From assembly GCA_934167885.1 (NCBI GenBank), contig CAKPMB010000003.1:30890-94889 (forward strand): DNA of 64,000 nt, given 5' to 3'. Position 1 is the stretch's first letter, and every line of letters starts with the position of its first letter. Source of the DNA: an uncultured Bacilli bacterium. GTDB lineage: Bacteria; Bacillota_I; Bacilli_A; RF39; UBA660. The notes below the pieces were generated by a model. The model had not been told where the DNA came from. It saw only the letters and a list, made by a program, of their open reading frames with translations, and did no database searches. Shown piece by piece: positions 8,858 to 34,055 of the stretch. Position numbers and translations under genes: made by a program.

Positions 8858-9608
8858 TATTAAAAGTGATCGTGAAATTGAATTATTGGCAATTGCTGGA
8901 AATATCGTTTATGAAACACATCAGTATTTAAAACCCTTTGTTAAAGAAGGGATAACTACTAAGGAATTAGATGAGTTAGCTGAAGCGTTTATTTTAAGTA
9001 AAGGTGCAACGCCATCTTTTAAAAATTATGATGGATTTCCAGCAAGTATATGCACAAGTATTAATCAAGAAGTTGTTCATGGTATTCCAAGTCGTCGTCG
9101 TCTTCGAAATGGTGATATAATATCAATAGATATTGGTGCTTGTTATAAGGGATATCATGGTGATTCAGCTTGGACATACGCTGTAGGTGAGATAAGTCCT
9201 AAGAAGAAGGAATTATTAAAACATACAGAGGAAAGTTTATTCGCTGGTCTTAATGAAATTAAACCAGGTGCCCATATCGGCGATATTGGCGAAGCAATAT
9301 TTAATTGTGCAACAAAGTATAATTTAGGTGTTGTTCGTGAATTAGTTGGTCATGGTGTCGGAACTTCTGTGCATGAAGAACCGGATGTTCCAAATTATGG
9401 TCATCGAGGAACTGGTCCAGTTTTAAAGAAGGGTATGGTTATTGCTGTTGAACCAATGTTGACATTGGGAAGAAGAGATATTTGTATTCTTGATGATGAT
9501 TGGACAATTGAAACCGTTGATAATAGCCCAAGTGCTCATTATGAACATACGGTTGCTGTTACCGATAATGGATATCGAATTTTGACGGGGAGGAAATTAA
9601 ATGGCTAA
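8850..9608 (+). CDS. map: Methionine aminopeptidase type I
   Basis: 252 aa; [32 protein letters not shown]; 8-nt overlap with adk. Confidence 0.96.
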
Positions 9609-9816
9609 AAATGATACGATTGAGGTAGAAGGAAAAGTTTTAGAAGTTTTACCGGGTTACAAATTCAAGGTTGAGCTTGTGAATAAGCATATCATTGAAG
9701 CTCACGTTTCCGGTAAAATGCGAATGAATTACATTCGTATCGTGGAAGGCGATAATGTAGTTGTTGAGTTATCGCCATACGATTTAACACGTGGGCGTAT
9801 AACCTATAGGAAATAG
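9601..9816 (+). CDS. infA: Translation initiation factor IF-1
   Basis: 71 aa; [27 protein letters not shown]1-like. Confidence 0.97.
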
Positions 9817-9827
9817 GAGGGAAAATA

Positions 9828-9941
9828 ATGAAAGTTAAACCATCAGTAAAACCAATTTGTGCTAAATGCAAGGTAATTAAACGAAAAGGAAAAGTAATGG
9901 TTATTTGTGAGAACCCAAAACACAAACAAACTCAAGGGTAA
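9828..9941 (+). CDS. rpmJ: 50S ribosomal protein L36
   Basis: Not in ORF track (37 aa): [37 protein letters not shown]; GGAGGG RBS 9816-9821; TAA 9939-9941. Confidence 0.95.
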
Positions 9942-9956
9942 AATAAGGAGGAATTT

Positions 9957-10322
9957 ATGGCACGTATAAAAGGTGTAGATATCCCTAATGACAAACATAT
10001 TGTGATATCTCTAACTTATATTTATGGTATTGGGCATAGTCTTGCTAAAGAAATTTGCGAAAAAGCAAAGATTGACCCAACTAAAAAAGCAGGCGATTTA
10101 ACAATTGAAGAATTAAATTTACTTCGTGATGCTATTGGTGAACATTTAGTTGAAGGTGATTTACGTCGTGAAGTAAATATGAACATTAAAACAAAAATGG
10201 AAATTAATTCATATCAAGGAACTCGTCATAAAAAAGGTTTACCTGTTCGTGGGCAAAGAACTAATAGAAATGCTCGCACAAGAAAAGGAAAAGGTAAGAC
10301 TGTTGCTAATAAAAAGAAATAG
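9957..10322 (+). CDS. rpsM: 30S ribosomal protein S13
   Basis: 121 aa; [26 protein letters not shown]. Confidence 0.98.
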
Positions 10323-14509: not shown

Positions 14510-14607
14510 TTGACCTCCTTAAATTTATTTTATATTGTTTATTCTACCATGCCTTTTGCATTTTTTAAAGAAATATGGTATAATATTGCGAAGTTTTGAG
14601 GTTATTT

Positions 14608-15429
14608 ATGGATGAGATTATTGACATTGTTCGTGAAGCATTAATTAATAAACAAGCTTTAACTAGTTTACAATTAAAGAAAATAATTTATAGTTTTTTG
14701 ACATATTATGAAATTAGTCAATATGTTCAAGATGTTTCAATTGATTATGGTGCAAAAGTTAATCATTTAGCGCATTATGATCTTCTTAATCAAGTTTTAT
14801 ATTTTAATGCTGATGCTATAAATGAAGTGACTTTTTATAATTATAATCATGATAAGGAAATATATAATTTAACATTCCACGAATATACCATTATTCAAAA
14901 TTTAATAACTATTTTTCATGAATTACGTCATGTTATGCAATATGCTATTTATTGCAGTGAGACAACAGATATTATGTCCTTAATAATTAGAGATTGTCAA
15001 AGAAATCGTTTAAAAGAAGATGAAGAAAGTTATCGTAAAAATTATAAAATTAATCCATTAGAACGTGAAGCTTATATATATGCTATTAGATTAACACTTT
15101 TAATTATTTCTAGGTGTCATTATTTTAAAAAGGATGTTTTAACTAAACTTAAGTCTTTTTACTTTCTTAATTTATTTGATGGCTACTTACCACCTGATTT
15201 TTCGGTATGTAATCTAGAAAAATATTATGAGCGAGTAGTTCATGATTTACAATGTTATTATGAATTTGAAAATCACTGTAATGAACTATCAACGTATGAA
15301 AAAATGTCTTTAGGTTTTCCAATTGATGTTAATGATCGTAACAATATTTTTATTGCTAATGTTTTAATAGATAAAGAAGATATTGATTATGCTATAAATG
15401 ATAAGAAGAAGATGAAGAAGCATGAATGA
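14608..15429 (+). CDS. ImmA/IrrE-like (M78-type) HExxH protein, paralog A
   Basis: 273 aa from ATG 14608; FHELRHVMQ (HExxH) followed by PLEREAYIYAI, resembling the E..AN.FA element of ImmA/IrrE; no signal peptide. Confidence 0.45.
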   Translation: MDEIIDIVREALINKQALTSLQLKKIIYSFLTYYEISQYVQDVSIDYGAKVNHLAHYDLLNQVLYFNADAINEVTFYNYNHDKEIYNLTFHEYTIIQNLITIFHELRHVMQYAIYCSETTDIMSLIIRDCQRNRLKEDEESYRKNYKINPLEREAYIYAIRLTLLIISRCHYFKKDVLTKLKSFYFLNLFDGYLPPDFSVCNLEKYYERVVHDLQCYYEFENHCNELSTYEKMSLGFPIDVNDRNNIFIANVLIDKEDIDYAINDKKKMKKHE

Positions 15430-16222
15430 AGTATGTAATATTATTTCAACGGCAATTTCTGAAAAGCGTATTTTAGATAGAATGGATATTTATAATATTA
15501 CATCTATAATCATTAAGTTGTATGATTGTGATAAATATTTAGATAACATTGTAATATCTGATTATTTTGTTCCTAATATTGCTGAGTATTCTGCTTATAA
15601 TAAAGTTATGTCTTTTAATCCTCGTAATATGCTTAATGATAGTATAAGTTTTTGTAATAATCGTCATTATAGTTTAGATTTTAATACTAAGATTTTATTT
15701 CAAATATTTCATCAGTTGGTTATTATTCTTCATGAAATAAGACACGTTATTCAAAATAAAGCGATATCTTCTCAAACAATTAATAATACGAATGATTATG
15801 TATATAAGATGGTTATGTTTGATTGTATAAGAGGGGACTTGAATGAGACTTATAAAAGAAATGGCAACCTTTTTCCAAGTGAAAAGGATGCCAACTTCTT
15901 TGCCGTTAATTTTGTCTTTAATTTATTTAAAACTATGCCGATAAATAATGCTTATTTTCATAGTATATTAAATGATGCCTATTTTTATTATTTATATCAA
16001 GGTTATAATAATTACTTTGGGATGCTTAGAACGTTTTATTGCAATGTTTTATCAAAAGAGAATGTATATAAACATTTGAGTAAGTATTTGAATGAGTTAA
16101 CAACATATAATAAGTTGGGTATTAATGCTAACTTAAATGAAGGGGATGTTCGCTTGTTAAATGAGTTTTTCCAAAATGTTAATAATAGTGACCCAATAGT
16201 TGTATTAAATAAAAAAATCTAG
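15422..16222 (+). CDS. ImmA/IrrE-like (M78-type) HExxH protein, paralog B
   Basis: 266 aa; LHEIRHVIQ and PSEKDANFFAV; colinear with paralog A; ATGAATGA overlap with A. Confidence 0.45.
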   Translation: MNEVCNIISTAISEKRILDRMDIYNITSIIIKLYDCDKYLDNIVISDYFVPNIAEYSAYNKVMSFNPRNMLNDSISFCNNRHYSLDFNTKILFQIFHQLVIILHEIRHVIQNKAISSQTINNTNDYVYKMVMFDCIRGDLNETYKRNGNLFPSEKDANFFAVNFVFNLFKTMPINNAYFHSILNDAYFYYLYQGYNNYFGMLRTFYCNVLSKENVYKHLSKYLNELTTYNKLGINANLNEGDVRLLNEFFQNVNNSDPIVVLNKKI

Positions 16223-18040: not shown

Positions 18041-18070
18041 TTGACAATAAATGATTATTAATATTATATT
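18041..18070 (+). promoter_or_regulatory. Candidate sigma-A promoter for the 18.2-21.8 kb operon
   Basis: TTGACA (18041-18046), 18-nt spacer, TATATT (18065-18070); ~100-nt AT-rich leader to the start codon. Confidence 0.4.
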
Positions 18071-18180
18071 TTAACTATAAGGTATCTTCTGAAATAAAAA
18101 TTTAATAATATATGATTTTTTAGTTATAAAATGCGAGTTTTGATAATATTTTTTAATGTAAATATATGATAAGGAGGTCT

Positions 18181-19431
18181 ATGGAAACGTTTATTTATGT
18201 TAATGCCAAAAAAAATATTGATGATGTTGCGTTTGAGGTTGTTGAAACAAAAGGTATGGGACATCCTGATAATATATGCGATGCTTTAGCGGAGAAGATA
18301 TCAGCCAATTATTCAAAGTATTGTTTATCAAAGTATGGCGTAATATTAAGACATATGATTGATAAATTATCAGTTCTTGGAGGAGGTTCAAAAGTATGGT
18401 TTCAAGGTGGTGAAATAACTTCTCCTATAAGAGTTTTAGTAAATGGTCGTTTTACAAATAATTTTAATAATGATCAAATTGATTATATGAAGATTGTTAA
18501 TAAAACTATTAAGACTTATTTTAAAAAATTATTTCCACTACTTAATGTGGAAAAAGATTTAGTAATAGTTGATAATACGCATCATAATGAAGGACCAGGC
18601 GTTGTTTACAATGATGACGGCACAACTTTAAATGAGCGTAAACGTTTTTTTGAAGTTGTTTCCAAAGAAGATTTACATCGTCATAATAATCATTTTAAAT
18701 GTAATGATACTTCTACAACTGTAAGTTATTATCCTATGAGTAAATTAGAAAAATTAGTTCTTGATATTGAAAAGACATTAAATAGTTCTGAATATAAAAA
18801 GAGAAATCCTTGGACAGGTAGTGATATTAAAGTAATGGGTATTAGAAAAGGTAGTCTTATTGAAATAACATCATGTGTTCCTTTAATATCAAAGTATGTT
18901 TTGAATTTAGATGATTACAAAGAAAAATTAAATAAAATAAAAAAAGATATAGCATCTATAATCGAAAAATATTTTGATGGAAATTATGCAATTTATTTAA
19001 ATACACGTGATAATTACGAAAAAAATGATATGTATATGACTGTTATTGGTAGTGCCATTGAAAGTGGTGATGAAGGAGCGGTTGGTCGTGGTAATCGTCC
19101 GATGGGTTTAATTCCTTTTTCACGTCATTTTAGTATGGAGGCTTCTTGTGGTAAAAATCCTGTATACCATACTGGCAAAATATTCTCTGCTATCGGTAAT
19201 GAAATAAGCAGGGCAATTTATGATAAATATCATGTTGAAAACATTGTTTATATGACTTCTAAAATGGGGGACGAAATGGAAAACCCTTGGAATGTTTCTG
19301 TTGAATTAAATGAAGATGTATCAACAAAGATTCGTGATGGTATTAATAAAATTGTTAATAAATATTTGAAAAAACACTATGATGTAACTAAAAAAATTAT
19401 TAATGGTAAGATAAAACTAAATAACTATTAG
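18181..19431 (+). CDS. Archaeal-type S-adenosylmethionine synthetase (MAT) homolog
   Basis: 416 aa from ATG 18181 (AAGGAGG RBS 18170-18176). Colinear with archaeal MAT as I recall it: ETKGMGHPDNICDALAE, NDTS, GSDIKVMGIRKG, GSAIESGDEGAVGRGNRPMG, SMEASCGKNPVYHTGKIF. Not MetK-like. Confidence 0.75.
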   Translation: METFIYVNAKKNIDDVAFEVVETKGMGHPDNICDALAEKISANYSKYCLSKYGVILRHMIDKLSVLGGGSKVWFQGGEITSPIRVLVNGRFTNNFNNDQIDYMKIVNKTIKTYFKKLFPLLNVEKDLVIVDNTHHNEGPGVVYNDDGTTLNERKRFFEVVSKEDLHRHNNHFKCNDTSTTVSYYPMSKLEKLVLDIEKTLNSSEYKKRNPWTGSDIKVMGIRKGSLIEITSCVPLISKYVLNLDDYKEKLNKIKKDIASIIEKYFDGNYAIYLNTRDNYEKNDMYMTVIGSAIESGDEGAVGRGNRPMGLIPFSRHFSMEASCGKNPVYHTGKIFSAIGNEISRAIYDKYHVENIVYMTSKMGDEMENPWNVSVELNEDVSTKIRDGINKIVNKYLKKHYDVTKKIINGKIKLNNY

Positions 19432-19439
19432 GAGGATTT

Positions 19440-20357
19440 ATGCGAATTATTGATTGTCATAGTCATATAGGTCATGATATTGGGTGCCTAGAAGCAACAA
19501 TTGATAACTATCTTGCTTTATCTTCAAGTGAAAAGATAACCGACGCACTATTAATGCCTGTTCCTAATCAAATAGTTGATGAAAATAAAGATGAAAAACT
19601 TTATTTAAGATGGAAGTTTGATAATGGCATAGTTTATTATTCAGACTATTATAAAAATAGTTTAAATAATCCTTATTTAATAACTAATGAAAAACTATTT
19701 GCTAAAATTAATAATACAAATACCAATATAAATATGCACTTTATTCCACTTATCCATCCACTTCTTGATACATATGATTATTTAGATTATATAAAACAAA
19801 TTTATAAGCCAGTTGCAATTAAAATTCATGGTTTAGCAGCCGGTTTAATGCCTAAAGAATTATACACAAATGAAGCTGCTATAAAGAAATTAAAGTATCT
19901 GGGACTACCTATTATTGTGCATACAGATTATATGCGTAATAAATCTAATACTTTTAATATAAGAGGTGTTAACGATGCCAAAGAGTGGTGTAGATTATTT
20001 AATGATAATGATCTACAAGGATATATCACTCATTGTGCTCGTTTTGAACCAGAAGCGATAAAATTGATAAATGAGTCTAATAATTTGGTTTTAGGCTTAG
20101 GGCCAACTAAATTATTATCATTCGCTAAAGATGAAATGTATTTAGATTTTAAATCTTCAAAAGATTTATTGTTAAAATTAAAAGAATATGTTAAACTTAG
20201 TAAAATTTTATTTGATGTAGATTATAATTGGAATTATAGTGAACCAAATAGAAATGATGTTTTTGACGATAAACCAGTAGAGGATGTTATTGATGTCTTT
20301 AAAGAAGACAAGGGAAAGGTTTTATCCAAGAATGCTGAGCGATTTTTTAGAATTTGA
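19440..20357 (+). CDS. Amidohydrolase-2 family TIM-barrel metal-dependent hydrolase
   Basis: 305 aa; MRIIDCHSHIGHD (HxH), KIHGLAAG, IIVHTDY, ITHCARF in the expected order; GGAGG RBS. Confidence 0.6.
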   Translation: MRIIDCHSHIGHDIGCLEATIDNYLALSSSEKITDALLMPVPNQIVDENKDEKLYLRWKFDNGIVYYSDYYKNSLNNPYLITNEKLFAKINNTNTNINMHFIPLIHPLLDTYDYLDYIKQIYKPVAIKIHGLAAGLMPKELYTNEAAIKKLKYLGLPIIVHTDYMRNKSNTFNIRGVNDAKEWCRLFNDNDLQGYITHCARFEPEAIKLINESNNLVLGLGPTKLLSFAKDEMYLDFKSSKDLLLKLKEYVKLSKILFDVDYNWNYSEPNRNDVFDDKPVEDVIDVFKEDKGKVLSKNAERFFRI

Positions 20358-20369
20358 AGGGAGAAGAAT

Positions 20370-20906
20370 ATGTATTTTAAAAAAATAGAAGGTGAAAAAA
20401 TATATTTATCACCAATTGATGTTAATGATTATGAATTATATGCTAAATGGATGAATGACTATAAAACAAGTCGTTATATAAAACAATATACCAATGTTAT
20501 TAATGCTGCTTCAGAAAAGGAATTTTTAGAAAAATTAGCTGTTACCCCTTATAATTTTGCTATTGTTTTGAAAAATAATGATAAATTAATAGGGAATGTT
20601 AGTTTAGTTAATGTTGATAATATTAATCAAACTGCTGAATTAGGCATTTTTATTGGTGATGATGAAAATAGACATCATGGATATGGAACAGAGGCTATTA
20701 AATTAATGATAAATTATGCTTTTAATTATTTGAATTTAAATAATATCTTCCTTAGTGTATATGCTCTTAACAAAAATGCTTATGAAGCTTATCAAAAAAT
20801 AGGCTTCAAAACCATCGGTGTGCGTCATGAATGTTTTTATTTTGATGGCAAACTTCAAGATGAAATATTTATGGAACTATTAAAAGCTGATTATGAATGC
20901 TTGTGA
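20370..20906 (+). CDS. GNAT N-acetyltransferase, RimJ/RimL-like
   Basis: 178 aa; LSPIDVNDYELYAKWMND.., IGNVSL.., HHGYGTEAIKLMINYAF, typical Acetyltransf_3 layout. Confidence 0.75.
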   Translation: MYFKKIEGEKIYLSPIDVNDYELYAKWMNDYKTSRYIKQYTNVINAASEKEFLEKLAVTPYNFAIVLKNNDKLIGNVSLVNVDNINQTAELGIFIGDDENRHHGYGTEAIKLMINYAFNYLNLNNIFLSVYALNKNAYEAYQKIGFKTIGVRHECFYFDGKLQDEIFMELLKADYECL

Positions 20907-21831
20907 TATTTTAAATCTCATAGAGAATGATTTAATTAACAACCATTGGTGTATAAATGAAAATGCTAAAAGTTATATTTTTGTTAAAAATAATTATCAG
21001 GCAACATGTTCATTTAAGCAAAAGTTAAATATTATTGAAGGTTATCAAAAAATATACAATACACTAACTAGTTTAAATCATTGTATTTTGTATAAACCAT
21101 TAGATATTTTAGATTCATATAAAAATAATTCTTTTATAGGATCGGGTTTAGATTTATATTATCCGTATTTTTATGATAATATTAAAATGCCCCATAACCC
21201 ATCTTTAATTTTTCAACCCGTTGTGCGCTATTCTAAAGAAAAATTAATGGGAGTGACAAAATACAAATCATCTATTTCCTTTGTTAATGTTTCCTATTTT
21301 AAAGAATTTAATAACAATTTATTTGAATGTATAAATGAAGTTATTGATATTTATTCTAAACTTGGAATTCATGCTTCAAATTTAAAGATAAAGTTAAATA
21401 AGAAAGAATATAAATATCTAAATAAAGAAAAACATTTTATAATAAAATTCTATATTAATGGGCTTGAAGTATCAGATATTTTACTTATTTTTTGCCATCA
21501 TAAAACTTTTATTGAATATGGCTTTGGTATTGAAAGAATGCTTATGGCTATTTTCAACTGTCAATACGAAAATTTATTCTTTAATGAACGAACAAATTAT
21601 TATCATGATGATTTAATTAGAATTAATTTTATAAGTTTATTAGCATTTTCTAATCAAAAATTTAAGAAAGGTTCTAAAAGTATTTATAATAAAATTAAGA
21701 ATGAATTAAAGTTATGTCCTTATAAAGATTCTCTTAAAATATTAAAAATAAATTATAATTATTGGAAATTAGTTTTAAATAGTAGCATGTCATTTAATAA
21801 GTTTTTAAATAATTATGCTAAATTAATATAA
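20893..21831 (+). CDS. Stand-alone class II aminoacyl-tRNA-synthetase-like catalytic core (GlyRS-alpha/AlaRS-like)
   Basis: 312 aa. Motif order QPVVRYSK ... SFVNVSYF ... FYINGLEVSDILLIF ... EYGFGIERMLMAIF mirrors subclass IId cores (motif 3 G.G.ER). No anticodon-binding or editing domain. 14-nt overlap with the GNAT gene. Confidence 0.45.
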   Translation: MNACDILNLIENDLINNHWCINENAKSYIFVKNNYQATCSFKQKLNIIEGYQKIYNTLTSLNHCILYKPLDILDSYKNNSFIGSGLDLYYPYFYDNIKMPHNPSLIFQPVVRYSKEKLMGVTKYKSSISFVNVSYFKEFNNNLFECINEVIDIYSKLGIHASNLKIKLNKKEYKYLNKEKHFIIKFYINGLEVSDILLIFCHHKTFIEYGFGIERMLMAIFNCQYENLFFNERTNYYHDDLIRINFISLLAFSNQKFKKGSKSIYNKIKNELKLCPYKDSLKILKINYNYWKLVLNSSMSFNKFLNNYAKLI

Positions 21832-21905
21832 AGATCTTTGTCCAAGATGAAGATTTTTTTTTATTAATAAAAAGATGTATGATATAATACTTGTGAAAAG
21901 AGGGA

Positions 21906-22364
21906 ATGATGAAAGAAGATAAAAAATTATTGATTTATAAAATTATAATAATTCTTTTAGGATTTAGTTCACTTTGTTTATTATATACACAAAAAATATA
22001 CATATATGAAAAAATATCAATTAAAACTTTTAGTATTGGGATGATAATTGGTATTATTTTATGGATTATCTTTTTAATTAATGCAACTATTTTAGTTTTT
22101 ATTGTAAATAAAAATGATGAAAAATATTTAAAATTACGAAATATTCAACGAAACATCGTTTTATTGTTGCTTATTACTATGATTTTAATATATCGCGTTG
22201 GTAATGGTATTTTAACACTTTATAAATTAAAAGGAACTTCTTTTAGAATTATGATATATGTTTTATTTGGTCTTATCTTTTTAACATATGTTATTATGAC
22301 AATAGTTATTAATAAGCAAGAGGTAAATAATTCTAAAAAGCAAAAATTAAAGAATAAAAAGTAG
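21906..22364 (+). CDS. Small polytopic membrane protein, unknown function
   Basis: 152 aa, about four hydrophobic helices, Lys-rich C-terminus; followed by a strong terminator. Confidence 0.55.
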   Translation: MMKEDKKLLIYKIIIILLGFSSLCLLYTQKIYIYEKISIKTFSIGMIIGIILWIIFLINATILVFIVNKNDEKYLKLRNIQRNIVLLLLITMILIYRVGNGILTLYKLKGTSFRIMIYVLFGLIFLTYVIMTIVINKQEVNNSKKQKLKNKK

Positions 22365-23232: not shown

Positions 23233-23472
23233 TTGACTAGCAGATACTCAAAAGAACAATTGTCAATTATTGTTAGAAAAAACATTAGAAAGTATCGGTT
23301 AATGCGAAAGTATACACTTCAAGAACTTGCTGATTTGACTGGTTTGACTCACGGATATGTTAGAGATTTAGAATGTTTATCCATCGAAAAAACACCACTT
23401 TTAGAAACTATTGGAAAATTTGCCGATGCATTGGAAATAGATATTAGGCAATTATTTGATGACATTAAATGA
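23233..23472 (+). CDS. XRE-family helix-turn-helix transcriptional regulator
   Basis: 79 aa; YTLQELADLTGLTHGYVRDLE; TTG start 9 nt after GAGGGAG. Confidence 0.7.
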   Translation: MTSRYSKEQLSIIVRKNIRKYRLMRKYTLQELADLTGLTHGYVRDLECLSIEKTPLLETIGKFADALEIDIRQLFDDIK

Positions 23473-23716
23473 TCTATATAGCAATATTTAGTTAAATTAA
23501 TTTTATGAAACGATTATTACATAATGCAAATTTTGAAAAAGATTACGTTTTTTTTGTGAAAGTGATTTGTGGACATATAAGAACGTAATCTTTTTGATAT
23601 ATTTATGAAGTATTTAAATATGTTATTGTCACAAAGACAATTTTACATAAATAATTAATAAGAAATTATTTTTCGTATTTAATAATAGGTTTTGTTTAAA
23701 ATAATAATGGTGGAAT

Positions 23717-25408
23717 ATGTCAAAAAGTGAAAATAAACAAATCCTTCTTAGTTGTAAAAAAGAATTTATATATAAATTTATTACAAGTATTGCTATTGTT
23801 GTTTTATTATTAATAATTCCTATTTTATATAGTAAAGCAATAGATTATATAAGTTATAATGCTTTTAAAAAAGCGGTTGTTATTTTAATTATTTTTGGTG
23901 TTATTACCTTAATTTATCGTTTTTTTGAAATAATAAATCAAAAAGCATATTATAAGTTATATTCTAAATTATATTATAATTATATGAATTTAGGTCTTGT
24001 AAAGACTTGCAATAATTCTTTATATAGTTTGTCACGTTTTAGTTTATCAGAGTATAGTAATATTTTAACAGAAGATTTTGAATATTTAAGTGATTATTAC
24101 AGCACTTTAATAATTAGAGGAGTAGAGATATTACAGTTTATTTATATTATTATTTATTTTTTCTTTATTAATAAAACTATTGGTTTAATAACGTTAATTT
24201 CATCGGTTGGTGTCATTATATTGCTTCTTTATTATAATAAACATATTGTTAAAACGAATGAATTACGCAAAGATTATAATGATGAACGTGTAAGTATATT
24301 ACAAGAAGTTTTTTTATCAATAAAGGAAATTAAAGGCTTCAATATGTTAAAGAAAATAAAAAAGAATATTGATGATGTTATTAATAACTATATTCTTTGG
24401 AATAATAAATTAAATATTGATAAATATAATATCCGTCAAATTGCCCTTTTAATAGTGGATATTTTTAAAGTTATTTGTTTAATCTATTGTGTATATTTAA
24501 TAAATGGTAGTTATATAACTATTGGTGTAATTACAATCGTATATAGTTATTATACTAAGTTATCGGACTTATTCGCTTCTATTATTTTACTTAATGAAAA
24601 TATTTCCAATGTTCGTGTTGCCAATAGGCGTATTTTTAAATTATTTCAGTATGCTCAAGATAATCCTAATAATTTAGAAAATAACAATGATATTAGCGGT
24701 CATATTACATTTGATGATGTTTTATATGGTAGTCGAAATAATCCTACCTTAAATCACGTTAGTTTTGATATTAAACCTAATACATATAATGTTCTAACAG
24801 GAGATGAACGAGCTTGTCATGGTATCTTTGAACTTCTATTATCGTATAATCGTAAACATAGTGGCAATATATATATCGATGATGTTGAAATTGAAAAATA
24901 TTCCAAAGAAAATATTAGTAATAATATAAATTTCATTATGTTGCCCATTGTTTTCTTTAATAAATCAATTAAAGATAATTTACTATTATTTGATAGTAAT
25001 TTTGACAATATTGTTAGTGTTTGTAAATACTTAGATATTCATGATGAAATTTTAAAATATAAAGATGGTTACAGCACAATACTAAATCATAATGCTAGCA
25101 ATATAAGTGATGATTTAAAATATATGTTATCATTCGCTAAGATTTTCTTAAAAAAAAGTAAAATTATTTTAATAGATGACTTTCTACCTTATCTGACTAA
25201 AAAAAGAAAAGAACAAGTTATAAATATATTAAATGATTTAAAGAAAGAACATACTATTTTATTTATAACTAAAAATAAGAGTATTATTGATAATAAAGAA
25301 GTAGATAATATTCTATTTATTCATAAAGCATCTTTTGTTATGTTAGAATCATGTGTATTAATGAAAAAGAATTGTCCATTATTTCTAGAGTTTTATAAAA
25401 ATATTTAA
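23717..25408 (+). CDS. ABC exporter-like fused TMD-NBD protein with degenerate nucleotide-binding motifs
   Basis: 563 aa; six N-terminal helices. In the C-terminal NBD, Walker A is LTGDERACHG (no GK[ST]), the signature position reads NISDDLKYML, and Walker B is ILIDDF (no catalytic Glu). Confidence 0.6.
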   Translation: MSKSENKQILLSCKKEFIYKFITSIAIVVLLLIIPILYSKAIDYISYNAFKKAVVILIIFGVITLIYRFFEIINQKAYYKLYSKLYYNYMNLGLVKTCNNSLYSLSRFSLSEYSNILTEDFEYLSDYYSTLIIRGVEILQFIYIIIYFFFINKTIGLITLISSVGVIILLLYYNKHIVKTNELRKDYNDERVSILQEVFLSIKEIKGFNMLKKIKKNIDDVINNYILWNNKLNIDKYNIRQIALLIVDIFKVICLIYCVYLINGSYITIGVITIVYSYYTKLSDLFASIILLNENISNVRVANRRIFKLFQYAQDNPNNLENNNDISGHITFDDVLYGSRNNPTLNHVSFDIKPNTYNVLTGDERACHGIFELLLSYNRKHSGNIYIDDVEIEKYSKENISNNINFIMLPIVFFNKSIKDNLLLFDSNFDNIVSVCKYLDIHDEILKYKDGYSTILNHNASNISDDLKYMLSFAKIFLKKSKIILIDDFLPYLTKKRKEQVINILNDLKKEHTILFITKNKSIIDNKEVDNILFIHKASFVMLESCVLMKKNCPLFLEFYKNI

Positions 25409-25991: not shown

Positions 25992-26067
25992 GGGGCATTA
26001 GCTCAGCTGGGAGAGCGTCACGTTTGCACCGTGAAGGTCAACGGTTCGATCCCGTTATGCTCCACCA
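25992..26067 (+). tRNA. tRNA-Ala (anticodon UGC), CCA encoded
   Basis: Cloverleaf read by hand: acceptor GGGGCAT/ATGCTCC with G3:U70 identity pair, anticodon loop TTTGCAC, T-arm GGTTCGATCC, 3' ACCA. Confidence 0.93.
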
Positions 26068-28737: not shown

Positions 28738-31293
28738 ATGAAGACTAGGAAGAGTATATTAATGATATTAGGCCTAGTTTTATTGTTAGGCGGGAGTTAT
28801 GCTTTTTATACTTATCAAAAGTATAGTGATATGCAGAATCTTTTAAATGGTGAGATTTATCTAAATTATTTAGAAGATAATGAAGTGCATATAAGTGGCA
28901 TATTTCCAGAGACCAAAGAAGAAGCATTAAAAAGAAATGATAACACAATAAGCTTTAAAGTATTAAGCAAGAATACTAGTGATAAAGATATTTATTATGG
29001 TATTACTTTAAATTATGGCGAAGAGATAAGTAATAAGATTAGAATAGATGCTAAATACATCATGATATATCTAGAATGTGATGGTAAAGTCCTAATAGAT
29101 GGTATAAGATATAGTGACTTTAATAATCGAAGAATCTATGTAGACAAGATAGATGCCAAAACATATACTGAAACTACTAAAAATTACACTCTAAGATTCT
29201 GGGTAGATGAAGAAACCACAATAAGTGATACTGATAGTAATGCTAGTTATAAAGCCACCGAGTGGGCGAATAGTTACTTAAATTTTAAAGTGAATGTAGA
29301 CGCTGGTTTAGAAACGATGAACATGCCTTTATCAATGGAAACCAGTGATACTTATGTAGAAAATAATAAAGCTTATTTTATTGCCAAGATAAGCAACTTT
29401 ATAAATGTAGAAGATCTTGGTAAAGATAGTAACGATACGATGAATTTAAAAGTAACAGGCACTAATAGTGATATTAAGTTTAGTTATAAAGATAGTGAAG
29501 GAAATACCGTTGAAGAAAAGAGTGCTACTCTAGATTTAACCTATCTATTCACTAAAAATAAAACAGTTGAAATCCAAGTCTTTGTTCATCCAAACAACGA
29601 TGCAAATGGTAAAACCAATGTTCTTTTAGAAATATACAAAAATAAAGAATTAATGCAAAGTTTTATTAAAAGAGTAGAAGTTAAAGGCAATAACTATTGT
29701 TTAAATAATGGCTTTAATAAATTAGTTGATTGTATGTTAGTAAGTGATAGTTTAAGTGAATCTGTTGATGTTGCTAAAACCAATATTGTCAACAAAGGCG
29801 AACCAAACCTAAATGATACCGCTCCAACATATACCTATGTTGAACAATTAACTGAAGATGTATCAAATCCATATAGTTATAATAGTATTAAATTTGCCTT
29901 TTCTAAGACGTATGAATTTGATGAAACTACTGGAGGTTTTAAATTAAGTGGCGATGTAATTGTGGATTATTTAAGCGATAAGTATATTGAATATTATACC
30001 GGTGGTGCTTATTGGTCTAATTCTTTTGATAAAATATTTTTCGTTAAAGGTGTAGATGTTCAAGAAACATCTCAAAAAATAACTAAAGCCGATGTCATAA
30101 CATATAAGATTGCAAGTTCTATTAGGTCAGAGGTTGGACTTTACAAGACTGTTGATAATTATGGAGATGTCTATTACTATCGAGGGGATGTCCAAAATAA
30201 TAATGTTTATTTTGGCGGATTCTACTGGAAAGTAATAAGAACCAATGGAGATGGAAGTATTCGCTTAATATATAATGGAAAAAATCAAAATGAAAATTAT
30301 ATATCTATAAATAATAAAAAATATTTATATAGCAACGGACATTCTGATCCAACATATGTTGGTTATATGTATGGTGAAAATTTTAAGTTACAAACTAGTC
30401 CTGTAATTAATTATTCATATTTTTATGCGGTTGATACATATACATTTGCGGATAGTTATATATTTGACGAAGACAAAAAAATGTTTGTTTTAAGTGGTAA
30501 CACTATTTCTGGGACTTTTTCGGCAATTAAAGATGAAGTGTCAAATTATCCTTATTCTTGCTTTAGACAGAAACTTTCTAACCAAAATGAATGTCAAATA
30601 TTACTTAAAATAAATTCATATATAAGTTCTGATAAGGCAAGTGTTCAATTAATATCTTATTCATCACAAAACAGTGCTAATACACGAACTAATGATTATG
30701 ATAGTAATGTCAAGAATGAGATAGATTTATGGTATGAACAGAATATAATATCTAATGAAGATAGTTATAATAATAATTTAACAGATTATATTGTTGATAA
30801 TTCTTTTTGTAATGATAGGTCATTTGCTAGTAGTGTAGAATATAATTCTGGATATCGTGTATTTGAACGAACAAATTATGCACCTCTTTCAAGGATTTCC
30901 ACTAATGTTAATAAGAGTGCTACGTTAAAGTGTAATTGGGATGTAAGAGATATGTTTAGTGTAACAAGCGCATATGGTAATGCTAAACTAAAATACCCCA
31001 TTGCTTTAATAACTGTTGATGAAGTAGCCTTAGCAGGTGGTAAATCGTCGTATAAAAATATTAATTATTATTTAAATAGTAATGATATGTTTATAACAAT
31101 GACACCATCATTTTATTCGGAAGCAAATGTATTATCAAGTATGTTTTATGTGAAAAGAGATGGAGCAATTAATCAGTGGGGTTATGTCGATACGTTATAT
31201 TCTATCATGCCAGTAATCAACATTCGTTCTGATGTTTTAATATCATCTGGCGATGGAACAATGGATAATCCTTACACATTAAAATTAAAATAA
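28738..31293 (+). CDS. Mosaic membrane-anchored surface protein, paralog 1
   Basis: 851 aa; N-terminal anchor ILMILGLVLLLGGSYAFY. Residues 1-369 are nearly identical to paralogs 2 and 3. Conserved island YKIASSIRSEVGLYK..YGDVYYYRGDVQNNNVYFGG.YWK.IRTNGDGSIRLIY. C-terminal PVINIRSDVLISSGDG..NPY.LKL. Confidence 0.85.
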   Translation: MKTRKSILMILGLVLLLGGSYAFYTYQKYSDMQNLLNGEIYLNYLEDNEVHISGIFPETKEEALKRNDNTISFKVLSKNTSDKDIYYGITLNYGEEISNKIRIDAKYIMIYLECDGKVLIDGIRYSDFNNRRIYVDKIDAKTYTETTKNYTLRFWVDEETTISDTDSNASYKATEWANSYLNFKVNVDAGLETMNMPLSMETSDTYVENNKAYFIAKISNFINVEDLGKDSNDTMNLKVTGTNSDIKFSYKDSEGNTVEEKSATLDLTYLFTKNKTVEIQVFVHPNNDANGKTNVLLEIYKNKELMQSFIKRVEVKGNNYCLNNGFNKLVDCMLVSDSLSESVDVAKTNIVNKGEPNLNDTAPTYTYVEQLTEDVSNPYSYNSIKFAFSKTYEFDETTGGFKLSGDVIVDYLSDKYIEYYTGGAYWSNSFDKIFFVKGVDVQETSQKITKADVITYKIASSIRSEVGLYKTVDNYGDVYYYRGDVQNNNVYFGGFYWKVIRTNGDGSIRLIYNGKNQNENYISINNKKYLYSNGHSDPTYVGYMYGENFKLQTSPVINYSYFYAVDTYTFADSYIFDEDKKMFVLSGNTISGTFSAIKDEVSNYPYSCFRQKLSNQNECQILLKINSYISSDKASVQLISYSSQNSANTRTNDYDSNVKNEIDLWYEQNIISNEDSYNNNLTDYIVDNSFCNDRSFASSVEYNSGYRVFERTNYAPLSRISTNVNKSATLKCNWDVRDMFSVTSAYGNAKLKYPIALITVDEVALAGGKSSYKNINYYLNSNDMFITMTPSFYSEANVLSSMFYVKRDGAINQWGYVDTLYSIMPVINIRSDVLISSGDGTMDNPYTLKLK

Positions 31294-31295
31294 AT

Positions 31296-31502
31296 AATAT
31301 TGAATAACATGATAATATTTGATAAAATCATATTAGAAAAAATAAAACAAAGGATATGATGAAAAGTGTTAAATAGTATCAAAGAGAATGTGTCAAAAAG
31401 TGTCAATATGGGGGGGGGTTACTTTATTAAGTAACAAACCTAATTTAGATTGTAAACAATGTAGAACAAGATTAAGTCTTGTTCTTTTATGTGGAGCAAA
31501 AC
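31296..31502 (+). repeat. Conserved leader, copy 2
   Basis: Starts 3 nt after the stop of paralog 1; heptamers at 31366/31376/31390/31400, hairpin 31463-31485. Confidence 0.9.
31410..31418 (+). repeat. Homopolymeric G9 tract, copy 2
   Basis: Nine consecutive G counted directly. Confidence 0.95.
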
Positions 31503-34055
31503 ATGAAGACTAGGAAGAATATATTAATTGTATTAGGCCTAGTCTTATTGTTAGGCGGCAGTTATGCCTTTTATACTTATCAAAAGTATAGTGGTATGCA
31601 AAACCTTTTAAATGGTGAGATTTATCTAAATTATTTAGAAGATAATGAAGTGCATATAAGTGGCATATTTCCAGAGACTAAGGAAGAAGCTTTAAAAAGA
31701 GATGATAACACTATAAGTTTTAAAGTATTAAGCAAGAATACGAGTGACAAAGATATATATTATGGTATTACTTTAAATTATGGTGAAGAGATAAGTAATA
31801 AGGTGAGAATTGATGCTAAATATATTATGATATATCTAGAATGTGATGGTAAAGTATTGATTGATGGTATAAGGTATAGTGACTTTAATAATCGAAGAAT
31901 TTATGTAGATAAAATAGATACCAAAACATATACCGAAACTACTAAGAATTATACATTAAGGTTCTGGGTAGATGAAGAAACCACGATAAGTGATACCGAC
32001 ATTAATGCTAGTTACAAAGCAACTGAATGGGCGAATAGTTATTTAAATTTTAAGGTTAATGTTGACGCTGGTTTAGAAACGATGAACATGCCTTTATCCA
32101 TGGAAACAAGTGATACTTATGTAGAAAATAATAAAGCTTATTTTATTGCCAAGATAAGCAACTTTATAAATATAGAAGACCTTGGTAAGGACAGTAATGA
32201 TACCATGAATTTAAAAGTAAGTGGAACTAATAGTGACATTAAATTTAGTTATAAAGATAGTGAAGGCAATACTGTTGAAGAAAAGAGTGATACGCTAGAT
32301 TTAACCTATCTATTCACCAAGAATAAAACCGTTGAAATTCAAGTGTTTGTTCATCCAAATAATGATGCCAACGGAAAGACTAATGTTTTATTAGAAATAT
32401 ACAAAAACAAGGAACTAATGCAGAGTTTTATTAAAAGAGTAGAAGTAAAAGGTAATAACTATTGTTTAAACAATGGCTTTAATAAATTAGTTGATTGTAT
32501 GTTAGTAAGCGATAGTTTAAGTGAATCTATTGATATTGCTAAAACCAATATTGCCAACAAAGGCGAACCAAATTTAAATGATACGGCTCCAAGTTACACC
32601 TATGTTGAAAAAATAGAAGAAGGATTAAATAATCCATACAGTAGTTCGTTAAATAAGTTTCTTTTTTCAAAGACATATGAATTTGATGCTAAAACCGGTA
32701 AATATGCTTTAACTGGTAATATAATTCGTGATAATTTAAGTGATGACTATATTGGTTATTATACAATCGGAGCATCGAGCATAGATTATTATGAAGCTAA
32801 TACTATGTATAAAATTTCTGAAACTAAAAAAGAAGGCGATAATTACATTATAACGAAAGGTGATAAATATAGTTATAAGATTGCAAGTTCTATTCGTTCA
32901 GAAGTAGGTTTATATAAAAATGCTGATGATTATGGTGATGTTTATTACTATCGAGGTGACGTTCAAAATAATAATGTTTATTTTGGTGGGTATTACTGGA
33001 AGATTATAAGGACGAACGGCGATGGAAGTATTCGTTTGATATATAGTGGCAAGACTAAAAATGCTACTGGTAGTGGTGTATCAATAAATAGTCAAACTTA
33101 TTCATATAATACTAAGTATTTTGATCCAACCTATATGGGCTATATGTATGGTAAGAACTTTGTAGAACAAGAAAGTGAACAAACCCTTAATGTAACCTTT
33201 AATGCCTATACAAAATATCTTATTTCATCATCTTATGTATGGAATAGTGAGACAAATAAGTATGAATTAAGCGGCGATATTGTTAGTTCAACTCTTATTG
33301 ATATAAAAGATAATTTACAAAATTATCATTGGACTTGTAGAAGTGATACACAAAATAGTTGCGAAGTTTTATATAAAATTAATGCTGTTTATAGTGAAAG
33401 TCAAGCTTATGTTCAGTATCTTGCTCATTCTTCGGTTGATTTAGATGGCACTAGGACAAATGAATTCGATAGTGATGTTAAAAAGCAAATAGATTTATGG
33501 TATGCTAACAATATTATTAATGTCAAAGATTCTTTTAATAATTTATTAACAGATTATATTGTTGATAATACCTTTTGTAATGATCGAAGCATAACCGATA
33601 AAACATATAACTCTGGTTATAAATTAGGGAATCATACTTTTTATTCTCCTTATGGGAGAATTTATCAAAATGCTAACAAAACAGCGACATTAAAATGTTC
33701 GAGTGATGTGCGTAATCAGTTTAGCACAACTTCCATATATGGTAATGCTAACTTAACGTATCCTGTTGCTTTGATAACCCTAGATGAAGTAGTTTTAGCT
33801 GGTGGTAAGTATGATGCAAAGAATGAAAACTTTTTTCTTAATCAAAATGTTAATTATTGGACGATGACGCCAATGGTTTTTAGTTCTTATTATTTAAATG
33901 CATCTATCGGCCTTGTTTCGTTTTTGGGAAGTATTTTCAATGGTGCTTCTTTGAATAATAATGTGGTAAGGCCGGTTATTAACATTCGCTCTGACGTTTT
34001 AATATCATCAGGCGATGGGAGTGTTAACAATCCTTACATTTTGAAGATAAACTAG
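31503..34055 (+). CDS. Mosaic membrane-anchored surface protein, paralog 2
   Basis: 850 aa from ATG 31503 (MKTRKNILIV.., same RBS context as paralogs 1 and 3; ORF-track start 31479 is an upstream TTG inside the hairpin). Confidence 0.85.
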   Translation: MKTRKNILIVLGLVLLLGGSYAFYTYQKYSGMQNLLNGEIYLNYLEDNEVHISGIFPETKEEALKRDDNTISFKVLSKNTSDKDIYYGITLNYGEEISNKVRIDAKYIMIYLECDGKVLIDGIRYSDFNNRRIYVDKIDTKTYTETTKNYTLRFWVDEETTISDTDINASYKATEWANSYLNFKVNVDAGLETMNMPLSMETSDTYVENNKAYFIAKISNFINIEDLGKDSNDTMNLKVSGTNSDIKFSYKDSEGNTVEEKSDTLDLTYLFTKNKTVEIQVFVHPNNDANGKTNVLLEIYKNKELMQSFIKRVEVKGNNYCLNNGFNKLVDCMLVSDSLSESIDIAKTNIANKGEPNLNDTAPSYTYVEKIEEGLNNPYSSSLNKFLFSKTYEFDAKTGKYALTGNIIRDNLSDDYIGYYTIGASSIDYYEANTMYKISETKKEGDNYIITKGDKYSYKIASSIRSEVGLYKNADDYGDVYYYRGDVQNNNVYFGGYYWKIIRTNGDGSIRLIYSGKTKNATGSGVSINSQTYSYNTKYFDPTYMGYMYGKNFVEQESEQTLNVTFNAYTKYLISSSYVWNSETNKYELSGDIVSSTLIDIKDNLQNYHWTCRSDTQNSCEVLYKINAVYSESQAYVQYLAHSSVDLDGTRTNEFDSDVKKQIDLWYANNIINVKDSFNNLLTDYIVDNTFCNDRSITDKTYNSGYKLGNHTFYSPYGRIYQNANKTATLKCSSDVRNQFSTTSIYGNANLTYPVALITLDEVVLAGGKYDAKNENFFLNQNVNYWTMTPMVFSSYYLNASIGLVSFLGSIFNGASLNNNVVRPVINIRSDVLISSGDGSVNNPYILKIN

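Follow-up and report, generated by a model that had tools for sequence, protein, structure and literature searches.

A putative operon of an uncultured Bacilli bacterium joins a pair of methionine adenosyltransferase-like and alanyl-tRNA synthetase-like genes to an amidohydrolase-acetyltransferase module

Paralogues of aminoacyl-tRNA synthetases (aaRSs) are already known from pathways that make nucleoside-type small molecules. In the literature that we searched, the sole such enzyme related to alanyl-tRNA synthetase (AlaRS) is AcmF, from the ascamycin pathway of Streptomyces sp. 80H647. AcmF is a truncated AlaRS paralogue that has Glu instead of Asp at the amino-binding position, has lost most residues that bind ATP or activate alanine, and moves alanine from Ala-tRNA to 5'-O-sulfamoyl-adenosine, a step that is reversed by the hydrolase AcmE (PMC12945691). 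Here we analyzed a stretch of 64,000 nucleotides (nt; referred to as the window) of contig CAKPMB010000003.1, assembly GCA_934167885.1, from an uncultured Bacilli bacterium (RF39; UBA660). Genes 1 to 4 of this window encode a homologue of archaeal methionine adenosyltransferase (MAT), an amidohydrolase, a GNAT acetyltransferase, and a truncated AlaRS-like protein (Table 1). Judged from gene content and conservation, this putative operon joins two modules that are conserved separately, one of the MAT and AlaRS-like genes and one of the amidohydrolase and GNAT genes. In the literature searched, we came across no account of a MAT gene paired with an AlaRS-like gene, of the family of gene 4, or of the gene 2 and GNAT module; the initial annotation, too, knew of no described pathway of such composition.

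Gene 4 has the same domains as AcmF and differs from it in apparent origin and in the residues retained. Like AcmF of the AcmF/AcmD/AcmE module, it consists of the aminoacylation domain and the helical domain next to it alone, with Glu for the Asp that binds the alpha-amino group (for AcmF by its published description). The logic of the pathway that we propose below would also be shared, in that an adenosine derivative is aminoacylated in an adenylate pocket and a partner hydrolase reverses the step. Unlike AcmF, gene 4 appears to come from an archaeal-type AlaRS and keeps both ATP-binding arginines (of motif 2 and motif 3) as well as F130 and E192. In further contrast to the AcmF system, the cluster in the window has neither a dedicated full-length AlaRS nor sulfamate chemistry, and the partner is a MAT-like enzyme. 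Self-immunity to microcin C offers another parallel, with a GNAT (the C-terminal domain of MccE, or RimL) and a hydrolase (MccF, of the S66 type) that are able to neutralize an aminoacyl-nucleotide; the window also has a GNAT and a hydrolase, and an S66 gene is present in one related locus (L036). However, the GNAT of the window is not RimL- or MccE-like by score, and there is no S66 gene and no MccA- or MccB-type gene in the window cluster.

The pairing of AlaRS-like and MAT genes was kept over long evolutionary distances. We collected the contexts of AlaRS-like genes from public assemblies and metagenomes and mapped the neighboring genes by tblastn and hidden Markov models (HMMs). An archaeal-type MAT gene was adjacent to, or within 3 kb of, the AlaRS-like gene in approximately 22 of the 24 distinct loci that had enough flanking DNA, in four different arrangements, and the pair was usually accompanied by an S51 hydrolase gene. 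The AlaRS-like proteins of these loci are merely 23-42% identical (the MATs are 40-66% identical), indicating that the association is an old one. The exceptions were L027 and L028, which have S51, AlaRS-like, and SerRS genes and no MAT gene within 9.4 kb, and truncated contigs. The four genes of the window, which the initial annotation had read as one set of parts, were not conserved as a single unit; the two modules were. L002, with 91-96% identity to the window, retains all four genes. Two contigs from one sample, with 57-70% identity to the window, have MAT, HAD, and amidohydrolase genes (L046) and GNAT and AlaRS-like genes (L001); if adjacent, as we infer, they suggest a relative with the order MAT, HAD phosphatase, amidohydrolase, GNAT, and AlaRS-like.

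Accessory genes of types present in clusters around plasmid-borne MAT genes (see below) were also seen near AlaRS-like loci: NUDIX, HAD-IIB, inositol-phosphate synthase (MIPS), xylose-isomerase-like TIM barrels, Tmk-like kinase, and glycosyltransferase. A 345-aa protein of the environmental loci with a MIPS gene (group B in Table 1) was considered as an equivalent of gene 2 or of the S66 peptidase and was rejected, as it resembles GT-B glycosyltransferases instead. A search for anti-phage defense systems with PADLOC gave no match, either for the proteins of genes 1-4 or for those encoded by the S51, glycosyltransferase-like, and AlaRS-like genes in L005. Separately, in the Tenericutes metagenome-assembled genome UMGS1611 (L003), a second S51 gene and the 3' end of what appears to be a housekeeping MetRS gene overlap by 4 nt, so a coupling of S51-like hydrolases to aaRS genes may be more widespread.

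Gene 4 belongs to a family that appears, from profile comparisons, to derive from the catalytic fragment of an archaeal AlaRS. The protein has 312 aa and the motifs FYINGLEVSDILLIF and EYGFGIERMLMAIF, and as a single sequence it had no match in Pfam (including tRNA-synt_2c, PF01411), NCBIfam, or the PDB. An exhaustive HMMER search of 1.84 billion representative proteins found 32 relatives, all of them stand-alone proteins of 65-415 aa. A profile of 31 family members matched archaeal AlaRS (A. fulgidus and P. horikoshii; E 2e-16) from the N-terminus through motif 3 and onward into the initial helical portion of the tRNA-recognition domain, and the alignment of gene 4 to A. fulgidus AlaRS stops near residue 417. 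Matches to tRNA-synt_2c were weak and limited to 9 of the 31 members. Foldseek ranked AlaRS and GlyQ (GlyRS-alpha) first for the predicted model of gene 4, a model of low confidence (pLDDT 56). The class IId catalytic core that had been read from the motifs at first is thus upheld by both approaches. The accompanying claim that tRNA-binding modules are missing needs amendment: the helical domain is kept, and there is nothing beyond it, with no PSN motif, Mid2, editing domain, or C-Ala.

Residues of the catalytic core were conserved throughout the gene 4 family. Q108, P109, R112, F130, E214, and R215 were invariant among the 31 members, and E192 was likewise conserved; the counterparts of Q108/P109/R112 and E214/R215 in A. 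fulgidus AlaRS lie in QPCIR and GYGLER, respectively. Glu208 of gene 4, in EYGFGIER, is at the position of Asp235 (E. coli AlaRS numbering), which we take to be the residue that binds the alpha-amino group. The residue is Glu in the subgroup that includes gene 4 and Asp in most other members, which divides the family into E-type (VEYGFGxER) and D-type (SDxGFGLER) proteins. Many members have N-terminal Zn-ribbon-like cysteines (CxxC...CxxC), as does archaeal AlaRS, and these are lacking in gene 4. We found no plasmid match for gene 4 and no relative on viral contigs. We also considered and rejected the idea that gene 4 is a piece of a genuine split AlaRS, as the family is too diverged and too rare.

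Gene 1 is a predicted member of a distinct bacterial subfamily of MAT homologues with a long gating loop. The protein matched the Pfam family AdoMet_Synthase (PF01941) with 351.4 bits (cut-off of 27) and M. jannaschii MAT (7p83) with approximately 45% identity over the HMMER alignment, consistent with the initial view that it is colinear with archaeal MAT and not with MetK. It was below the cut-offs of all five NCBIfam MAT equivalogs (PRK04439 group), the best score being 316 bits versus 481. The motifs GMGHPDNICD, RHMIDK, NDTS, DIKVMG, GDEGAVGRGNR, and MEASCGKNPVYHTGK were all found. Like the archaeal enzymes TkMAT, MjMAT, and SsMAT, gene 1 has the catalytic His (GHPD) and the ribose/triphosphate motifs NDTS, DIKVMG, GDEGxVGRGNR, and GKNPVYHxGK (GDEGAVGRGNR and GKNPVYHTGK in gene 1). 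Unlike in the archaeal enzymes, LRHMIDK replaces LHHNTDQ, a difference that had been spotted at the outset as RHMIDK for HHNTDQ. In TkMAT of T. kodakarensis, His62 and Asn64 hold the carboxylate of methionine (PMC3853416); in gene 1 these positions are Arg and Met, so both carboxylate ligands are substituted. In addition, the gating loop is approximately 20 residues longer than that of archaeal MATs and unrelated to it in sequence (the short loop of TkMAT carries Asp144 and Leu145). Archaeal MAT stands alone, whereas gene 1 is in accessory clusters.

Homologues of gene 1 are also present on plasmids, and its extended loop is shared with some MAT homologues of plasmid clusters. We examined four examples. 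The homologue on pCT127 of B. thuringiensis is in a cluster with a nonribosomal peptide synthetase, UDP-glucose dehydrogenase, glycosyltransferase, oxidoreductases, and a P-loop protein. The gene orders of the other three are: glycosyltransferase, MAT, sugar-phosphate isomerase, Gfo/Idh/MocA oxidoreductase, carbamoyltransferase, and NUDIX (Streptomyces); HAD-IIB, MIPS, and MAT (Parageobacillus); and MAT, xylose-isomerase-like protein, NUDIX, oxidoreductases, and Tmk (Ca. Megaera). In an alignment, the extended loop was present in the Megaera and Streptomyces proteins and in both groups of MATs that adjoin AlaRS-like genes; it is shorter and modified in those of B. thuringiensis and Parageobacillus, and M. 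jannaschii MAT and a MAT from a Phenylobacterium plasmid have neither form. Group-B MATs that are beside AlaRS-like genes retain the His-His-Asn of true MATs. Bacillus and Streptomyces possess a normal MetK, indicating that the long-loop subfamily is not the housekeeping enzyme in those hosts. A search with the family HMM found no AlaRS-like gene in the plasmid MAT clusters, and gene 1 had no phage match.

The cluster on pCT127 appears to be that for thuringiensin (beta-exotoxin), based on its gene content and a review that places the thuringiensin cluster on a cry1Ba plasmid of the same B. thuringiensis strain (PMC4147579). Its MAT homologue resembles gene 1 in being archaeal-type, in having a modified gating loop, and in residing in a biosynthetic cluster, one that makes a 5'-modified adenosine compound if the product is thuringiensin. 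It differs in being only 34% identical to gene 1 and in the absence from its cluster of AlaRS-like, amidohydrolase, and GNAT partners. This homologue (L051 in Table 1) is a candidate for making the C5'-O-glucose ether bond of adenosine; a 2014 review credits Thu1 with the C5'-O-glucose step of thuringiensin.

Gene 2 is predicted to encode a binuclear-metal amidohydrolase. It has the motif IDCHSHIG and gave no direct sequence match in Pfam (including PF04909), NCBIfam, or the PDB. An AlphaFold2 model made from a 15-sequence alignment (pLDDT 89, pTM 0.91) had a TIM barrel, (beta/alpha)8, and Foldseek matched it to dihydroorotase (DHOase; 6l0b, E 1.8e-7), Amidohydro_2 (2f6k), and TatD (3rcm). Distant homologues in L016 and L013 pass PF04909 (44.5 and 37.4 bits, respectively) and align with gene 2 by hhalign at 96.5% probability. 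These results agree with the Amidohydro_2-type barrel proposed in the initial annotation. H7, H9, K128, H161, H198, and D259 were invariant in the 15 homologues and are presumably the metal ligands (HxH, Lys, His, His, Asp).

Gene 3 is a GNAT, and not specifically of the RimJ/RimL type to which it had been assigned. It scored 79.5 bits with PF13302 (Acetyltransf_3) and only 22.2 bits with the RimL model (cut-off of 184) and 20.6 bits with the RimJ model (cut-off of 190). Scores were higher with the SpeG and PseH models, still below the cut-offs of those models, and the best solved relatives were diamine N-acetyltransferases of the SpeG type (E 2.5e-17), followed by AAC(6').

Homologues of gene 2 (15 proteins) adjoin GNAT genes and aaRS paralogues of other kinds, namely AsnA-like, TrpRS-like, and LeuRS-like (Table 1). 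In three related genomes, with Rel proteins 68-79% identical, three different aaRS-paralogue cassettes were directly 3' of rel, indicating that the cassettes behave as exchangeable accessory units; from the gene orders, the site 3' of rel looks like a variable accessory locus. The archaeal LeuRS-like protein of L041 has 466 aa, and the region of its gene 2 homologue also has a hydrolase gene. Between the two aaRS genes of that locus, ARAGORN called an odd tRNA-like element with a 4-nt anticodon.

From their arrangement, it is reasonable to regard genes 1-4 as one operon. The window is AT-rich (22-33% GC), and the four genes are tightly packed on one strand, with gaps of 8 and 12 nt and then an overlap of 14 nt between genes 3 and 4, exactly as first described. 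The promoter reported before gene 1, TTGACA-N18-TATATT, is indeed present, although such sites are not enriched (61 in the region versus 57 +/- 8 in shuffled sequences); as a promoter it is plausible, without statistical support. For gene 1, the ATG at 18181, preceded by AAGGAGG, is a more probable start than 18166. Strong ribosome-binding sites (AGGAGG and GGGAGA) precede genes 2 and 3. Gene 4 has none and its start overlaps gene 3, which suggests translational coupling. The hairpin and T-run that follow gene 4 were not called in the terminator scan; together with a -10-like element (TGaTATAAT) 5' of gene 5, they make a four-gene unit reasonable. Gene 5 was conserved in L002 only, and it is uncertain whether it is a member of the system. 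No riboswitch, T-box, or other Rfam family was found in the leader of gene 1 (approximately 100 nt): weak Rfam matches between 17800 and 18300 were at the level of chance, and within the window tRNA alone passed its gathering score.

The analysis establishes which proteins are encoded, how the operon is built, and that the gene pairings are conserved, and this led us to a tentative proposal, in which our confidence is somewhat short of even: that the operon makes and processes a small aminoacylated adenosine-type (adenosyl) metabolite, with steps of acetylation and hydrolysis. The MAT-like enzyme would use ATP to make S-adenosylmethionine (SAM) or another 5'-substituted adenosine. The truncated AlaRS-like enzyme would then join a small amino acid to this adenosyl compound; gene 4 keeps the arginines of motifs 2 and 3 and has an acidic residue where the alpha-amino group is bound. 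The donor could be an aminoacyl-adenylate made by the enzyme itself, which is possible given that it keeps the ATP-binding arginines, or, as with AcmF, an aminoacyl-tRNA. Finally, the GNAT would acetylate an amine that is free in the product, and an acyl or aminoacyl group would be taken off by the binuclear metallohydrolase. The GNAT and the metallohydrolase (S51 and S66 enzymes in variant loci) would thus constitute a cycle of protection and activation or of immunity.

The evidence bears on this proposal from both sides. In its favor are the linkage of MAT and AlaRS-like genes, which also holds in the relatives of the window, the recurrence of the gene 2 and GNAT module beside other aaRS paralogues, the long-loop MAT homologues in nucleoside- and sugar-type clusters, the direct precedent of AcmF, and the altered methionine site of gene 1. 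The S66 peptidase of L036 also counts in its favor, as an enzyme of a class known to detoxify aminoacyl-nucleotides; S66 peptidases are the MccF/LdcA family. Several points weigh against it. The four-gene operon has no methyltransferase and no obvious exporter. Group-B MATs, in view of the ligands that they retain, may simply make SAM. No bacterial metK, and likewise no alaS, was found in the window in a motif scan of its whole length and a Pfam scan of ten large open reading frames (ORFs). The structural model of gene 4 is of low confidence, and the two differences from the AcmF system noted above, the retained ATP-binding arginines and the lack of a dedicated full-length AlaRS, also count here. 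Last, many of the loci are beside apparently housekeeping aaRS genes and rel, which fits a role in translation equally well.

Such a role is the basis of the alternative that survives best, a module centered on tRNA, which we nevertheless consider unlikely. The AlaRS-like protein would charge or modify a tRNA or use aminoacyl-tRNA, the GNAT would acetylate aminoacyl-tRNA, the TatD/DHOase-like hydrolase would deacylate it, and the MAT would supply SAM. DTD3, a TatD-like D-aminoacyl-tRNA deacylase, is a precedent for the hydrolase, and relatives of gene 2 are weakly similar to TatD. The neighborhoods fit as well. AlaRS-like or gene 2 loci often adjoin aaRS genes: genes that pass equivalog cut-offs (in L003, TyrRS, TrpRS, and MetRS; in L039, AspRS), a TyrRS-type gene in L047 (unscored), and SerRS genes, of which that of L004 was recognized by its N-terminal domain alone and those of L016, L027, and L028 by similarity. 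RelA/SpoT genes adjoin five loci, with a TGS domain in L036, L042, and L045. The helical domain kept in gene 4 is equivalent to the start of the tRNA-recognition domain of AlaRS, the PSN motif is retained in some D-type members, and a tRNA-Ala gene is 4 kb 3' of gene 4. Against these stand the truncation of gene 4, which is without PSN, Mid2, the editing domain, and C-Ala; the absence of a tRNA-Ala gene near AlaRS-like loci other than the window and L002; the presence of the MAT subfamily in sugar and nucleoside clusters with no link to translation; and the rarity of the gene 4 family, which is far too great for a general role in translation.

A pathway like that for mycothiol is distinctly unlikely. 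Mycothiol synthesis (Ino1, MshB, MshC, MshD) also employs an aaRS-paralogue ligase, a GNAT, and a deacetylase, and by analogy the AlaRS-like ligase would act as MshC, the GNAT as MshD, and the amidohydrolase as the deacetylase MshB. The product would be a sugar or cyclitol that carries an amino acid and serves in the envelope or as a solute, with the MAT merely supplying SAM. The gene order of group B, which adds the inositol-phosphate synthase and a GT-B glycosyltransferase-like gene to the MAT, AlaRS-like, and S51 genes, is what would be expected, as are the HAD-IIB phosphatase between the MAT and the gene 2 homologue in L046 and the MIPS-MAT pair on the Parageobacillus plasmid. However, MIPS and glycosyltransferase genes are limited to one clade of loci, and the window has no MIPS (Ino1) or glycosyltransferase gene. 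There is no methyltransferase either, so a need for SAM does not explain the tight pairing with MAT, and mycothiol synthesis itself involves no MAT. Further, MshC is a paralogue of CysRS (class I), whereas gene 4 is a paralogue of AlaRS (class II).

We regard it as very unlikely that gene 1 is the ordinary SAM synthetase of the cell and that genes 2-4 are unrelated neighbors in a compact operon of a reduced genome. The catalytic motifs of MAT are intact in gene 1, the scans described above found no bacterial metK within the window, and group-B MATs keep the His and Asn that bind methionine, all of which would fit. But the MAT and AlaRS-like genes are paired in four arrangements across very distant lineages, gene 1 is under every MAT equivalog cut-off and has both ligands of the methionine carboxylate substituted, and related MATs are extra copies on plasmids of Bacillus and Streptomyces. 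The initial impression that these are not housekeeping genes is strengthened by the pairing, by the MAT homologues in nucleoside and sugar clusters, and by the precedent of AcmF. Finally, a non-catalytic AlaRS-like partner that senses an amino acid or nucleotide for the MAT, as the HisRS paralogue HisZ regulates HisG, is highly improbable: the two genes directly adjoin one another, and frequently only a few nucleotides lie between them, but in some loci they are convergent or separated by others, and the invariance of the motif-2 Arg, the motif-3 Arg, and the acidic residue across the gene 4 family favors catalysis.

Several other features of the window are listed in Table 1. A lone tRNA-Ala(UGC) gene with G3:U70 and its own TTGACA/TATAAT promoter and terminator is 4.1 kb 3' of gene 4. 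It is also present in L002 and near no other AlaRS-like locus, and for this reason a role as a dedicated partner of gene 4 is not supported. Upstream of the operon are two overlapping paralogues of approximately 270 aa with HELRH and HEIRH (HExxH-like) motifs and no significant match in Pfam or NCBIfam; L002 has ORFs of 273 and 266 aa at the same position. A small HTH_3 regulator gene is followed by that for a 563-aa ABC half-transporter (weak ABC_tran match of its nucleotide-binding domain, E 1.5e-3), which could be an operon-linked exporter; nothing ties it to genes 1-4. Four large ORFs had no Pfam match at E < 1e-6.

Table 1. Features of the window and of related loci, with gene orders
Feature	Sequence	Positions	Strand	Description
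Promoter-like site	window	18041..18070	+	TTGACA-N18-TATATT; 11/12 positions matched; best + strand match in region
Gene 1	window	18181..19431	+	archaeal-type MAT-like, predicted long-loop subfamily; alternative start 18166
Gene 2	window	19440..20357	+	amidohydrolase-superfamily metallohydrolase, related to Amidohydro_2
Gene 3	window	20370..20906	+	GNAT N-acetyltransferase (Acetyltransf_3)
Gene 4	window	20893..21831	+	truncated archaeal-type AlaRS-like protein; class II catalytic core and short helical domain
Possible weak terminator	window	~21832-21862	+	AT-rich hairpin and nine T, read from sequence, directly 3' of gene 4
Gene 5	window	21906..22364	+	small protein, about four membrane-spanning segments (hydropathy profile)
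HELRH/HEIRH paralogues	window	14596-15429, 15422-16222	+	
HTH_3 regulator and ABC half-transporter	window	23233-25408	+	
tRNA-Ala(UGC)	window	25992-26067	+	
Four large ORFs	window	28738-31293, 31479-34055, 51671-54226, 59767-62253	+	828-858 aa
Gene order	window, L002			MAT, amidohydrolase, GNAT, AlaRS-like
Gene order, group B	L005-L011, L019-L026, L029, L031, L033-L035, L037 (environmental)			MIPS, MAT, AlaRS-like, S51 hydrolase, GT-B-like
Gene order	L036			RelA/SpoT, MAT (66% identical to gene 1), AlaRS-like, S51, S66 peptidase
Gene order	L013, L016			AlaRS-like, S51, Amidohydro_2, then convergent MAT
Gene order	L015			as L013 and L016, minus Amidohydro_2
Gene order	L004			MAT, Tmk-like kinase, AlaRS-like, xylose-isomerase-like TIM barrel, SerRS
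Gene 2 homologue with	L039, L045, L049			archaeal-type AsnA-like core, AspRS, isoaspartyl dipeptidase
Gene 2 homologue with	L042, L047			highly divergent TrpRS-like protein, kinase, PRTase-like, CAT, 5'-nucleotidase-like
Gene 2 homologue with	L041			truncated LeuRS-like protein, MetRS, PP-loop ATPase, radical SAM enzyme; without GNAT
LeuRS-like region	L041	7001-13954		
Cassette 3' of rel	L036	5220-10770		AlaRS-like
Cassette 3' of rel	L042	279-8610		TrpRS-like
Cassette 3' of rel	L045	373-6266		AsnA-like
S51 and MetRS overlap	L003	820-6813		
MAT homologue, apparent thuringiensin cluster	L051 (pCT127)	8965-10206		archaeal-type

Returning to the proposed aminoacyl-adenosine metabolite, a bolder version is that the locus represents an unrecognized pathway to a new class of metabolites: a dedicated MAT-like enzyme would supply SAM or some other 5'-substituted adenosine, and the enzyme of archaeal AlaRS descent would aminoacylate it. 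We consider this bolder version somewhat unlikely. Such a pathway would span bacteria from candidate-phyla-like to gut Firmicutes- or Tenericutes-like lineages, and its product, which might for instance stably mimic an aminoacyl-adenylate or the 3' end of aminoacyl-tRNA, would serve as an antimetabolite or signal. In this wider view, the module of gene 2 and the GNAT would mark a family of cassettes, each with a different aaRS paralogue at its center.

Whatever their function, the families of gene 2 and gene 4, which are missed by Pfam and NCBIfam models, can now be annotated, and a MAT gene with an AlaRS-like gene, or an amidohydrolase with a GNAT beside aaRS paralogues, can serve as markers for genome mining. 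The comparison also leads to the hypothesis that the MAT homologue of the apparent thuringiensin cluster forms the unexplained C5'-O-glucose bond of adenosine. If our proposal is true, it would add a family of enzymes derived from class II aaRSs and a MAT-derived "adenosyl-transferase" subfamily to the chemistry of nucleoside and aminoacyl natural products, and would point to uncultured bacteria of the gut and of groundwater as sources of an aminoacyl-adenosine metabolite of a new type.

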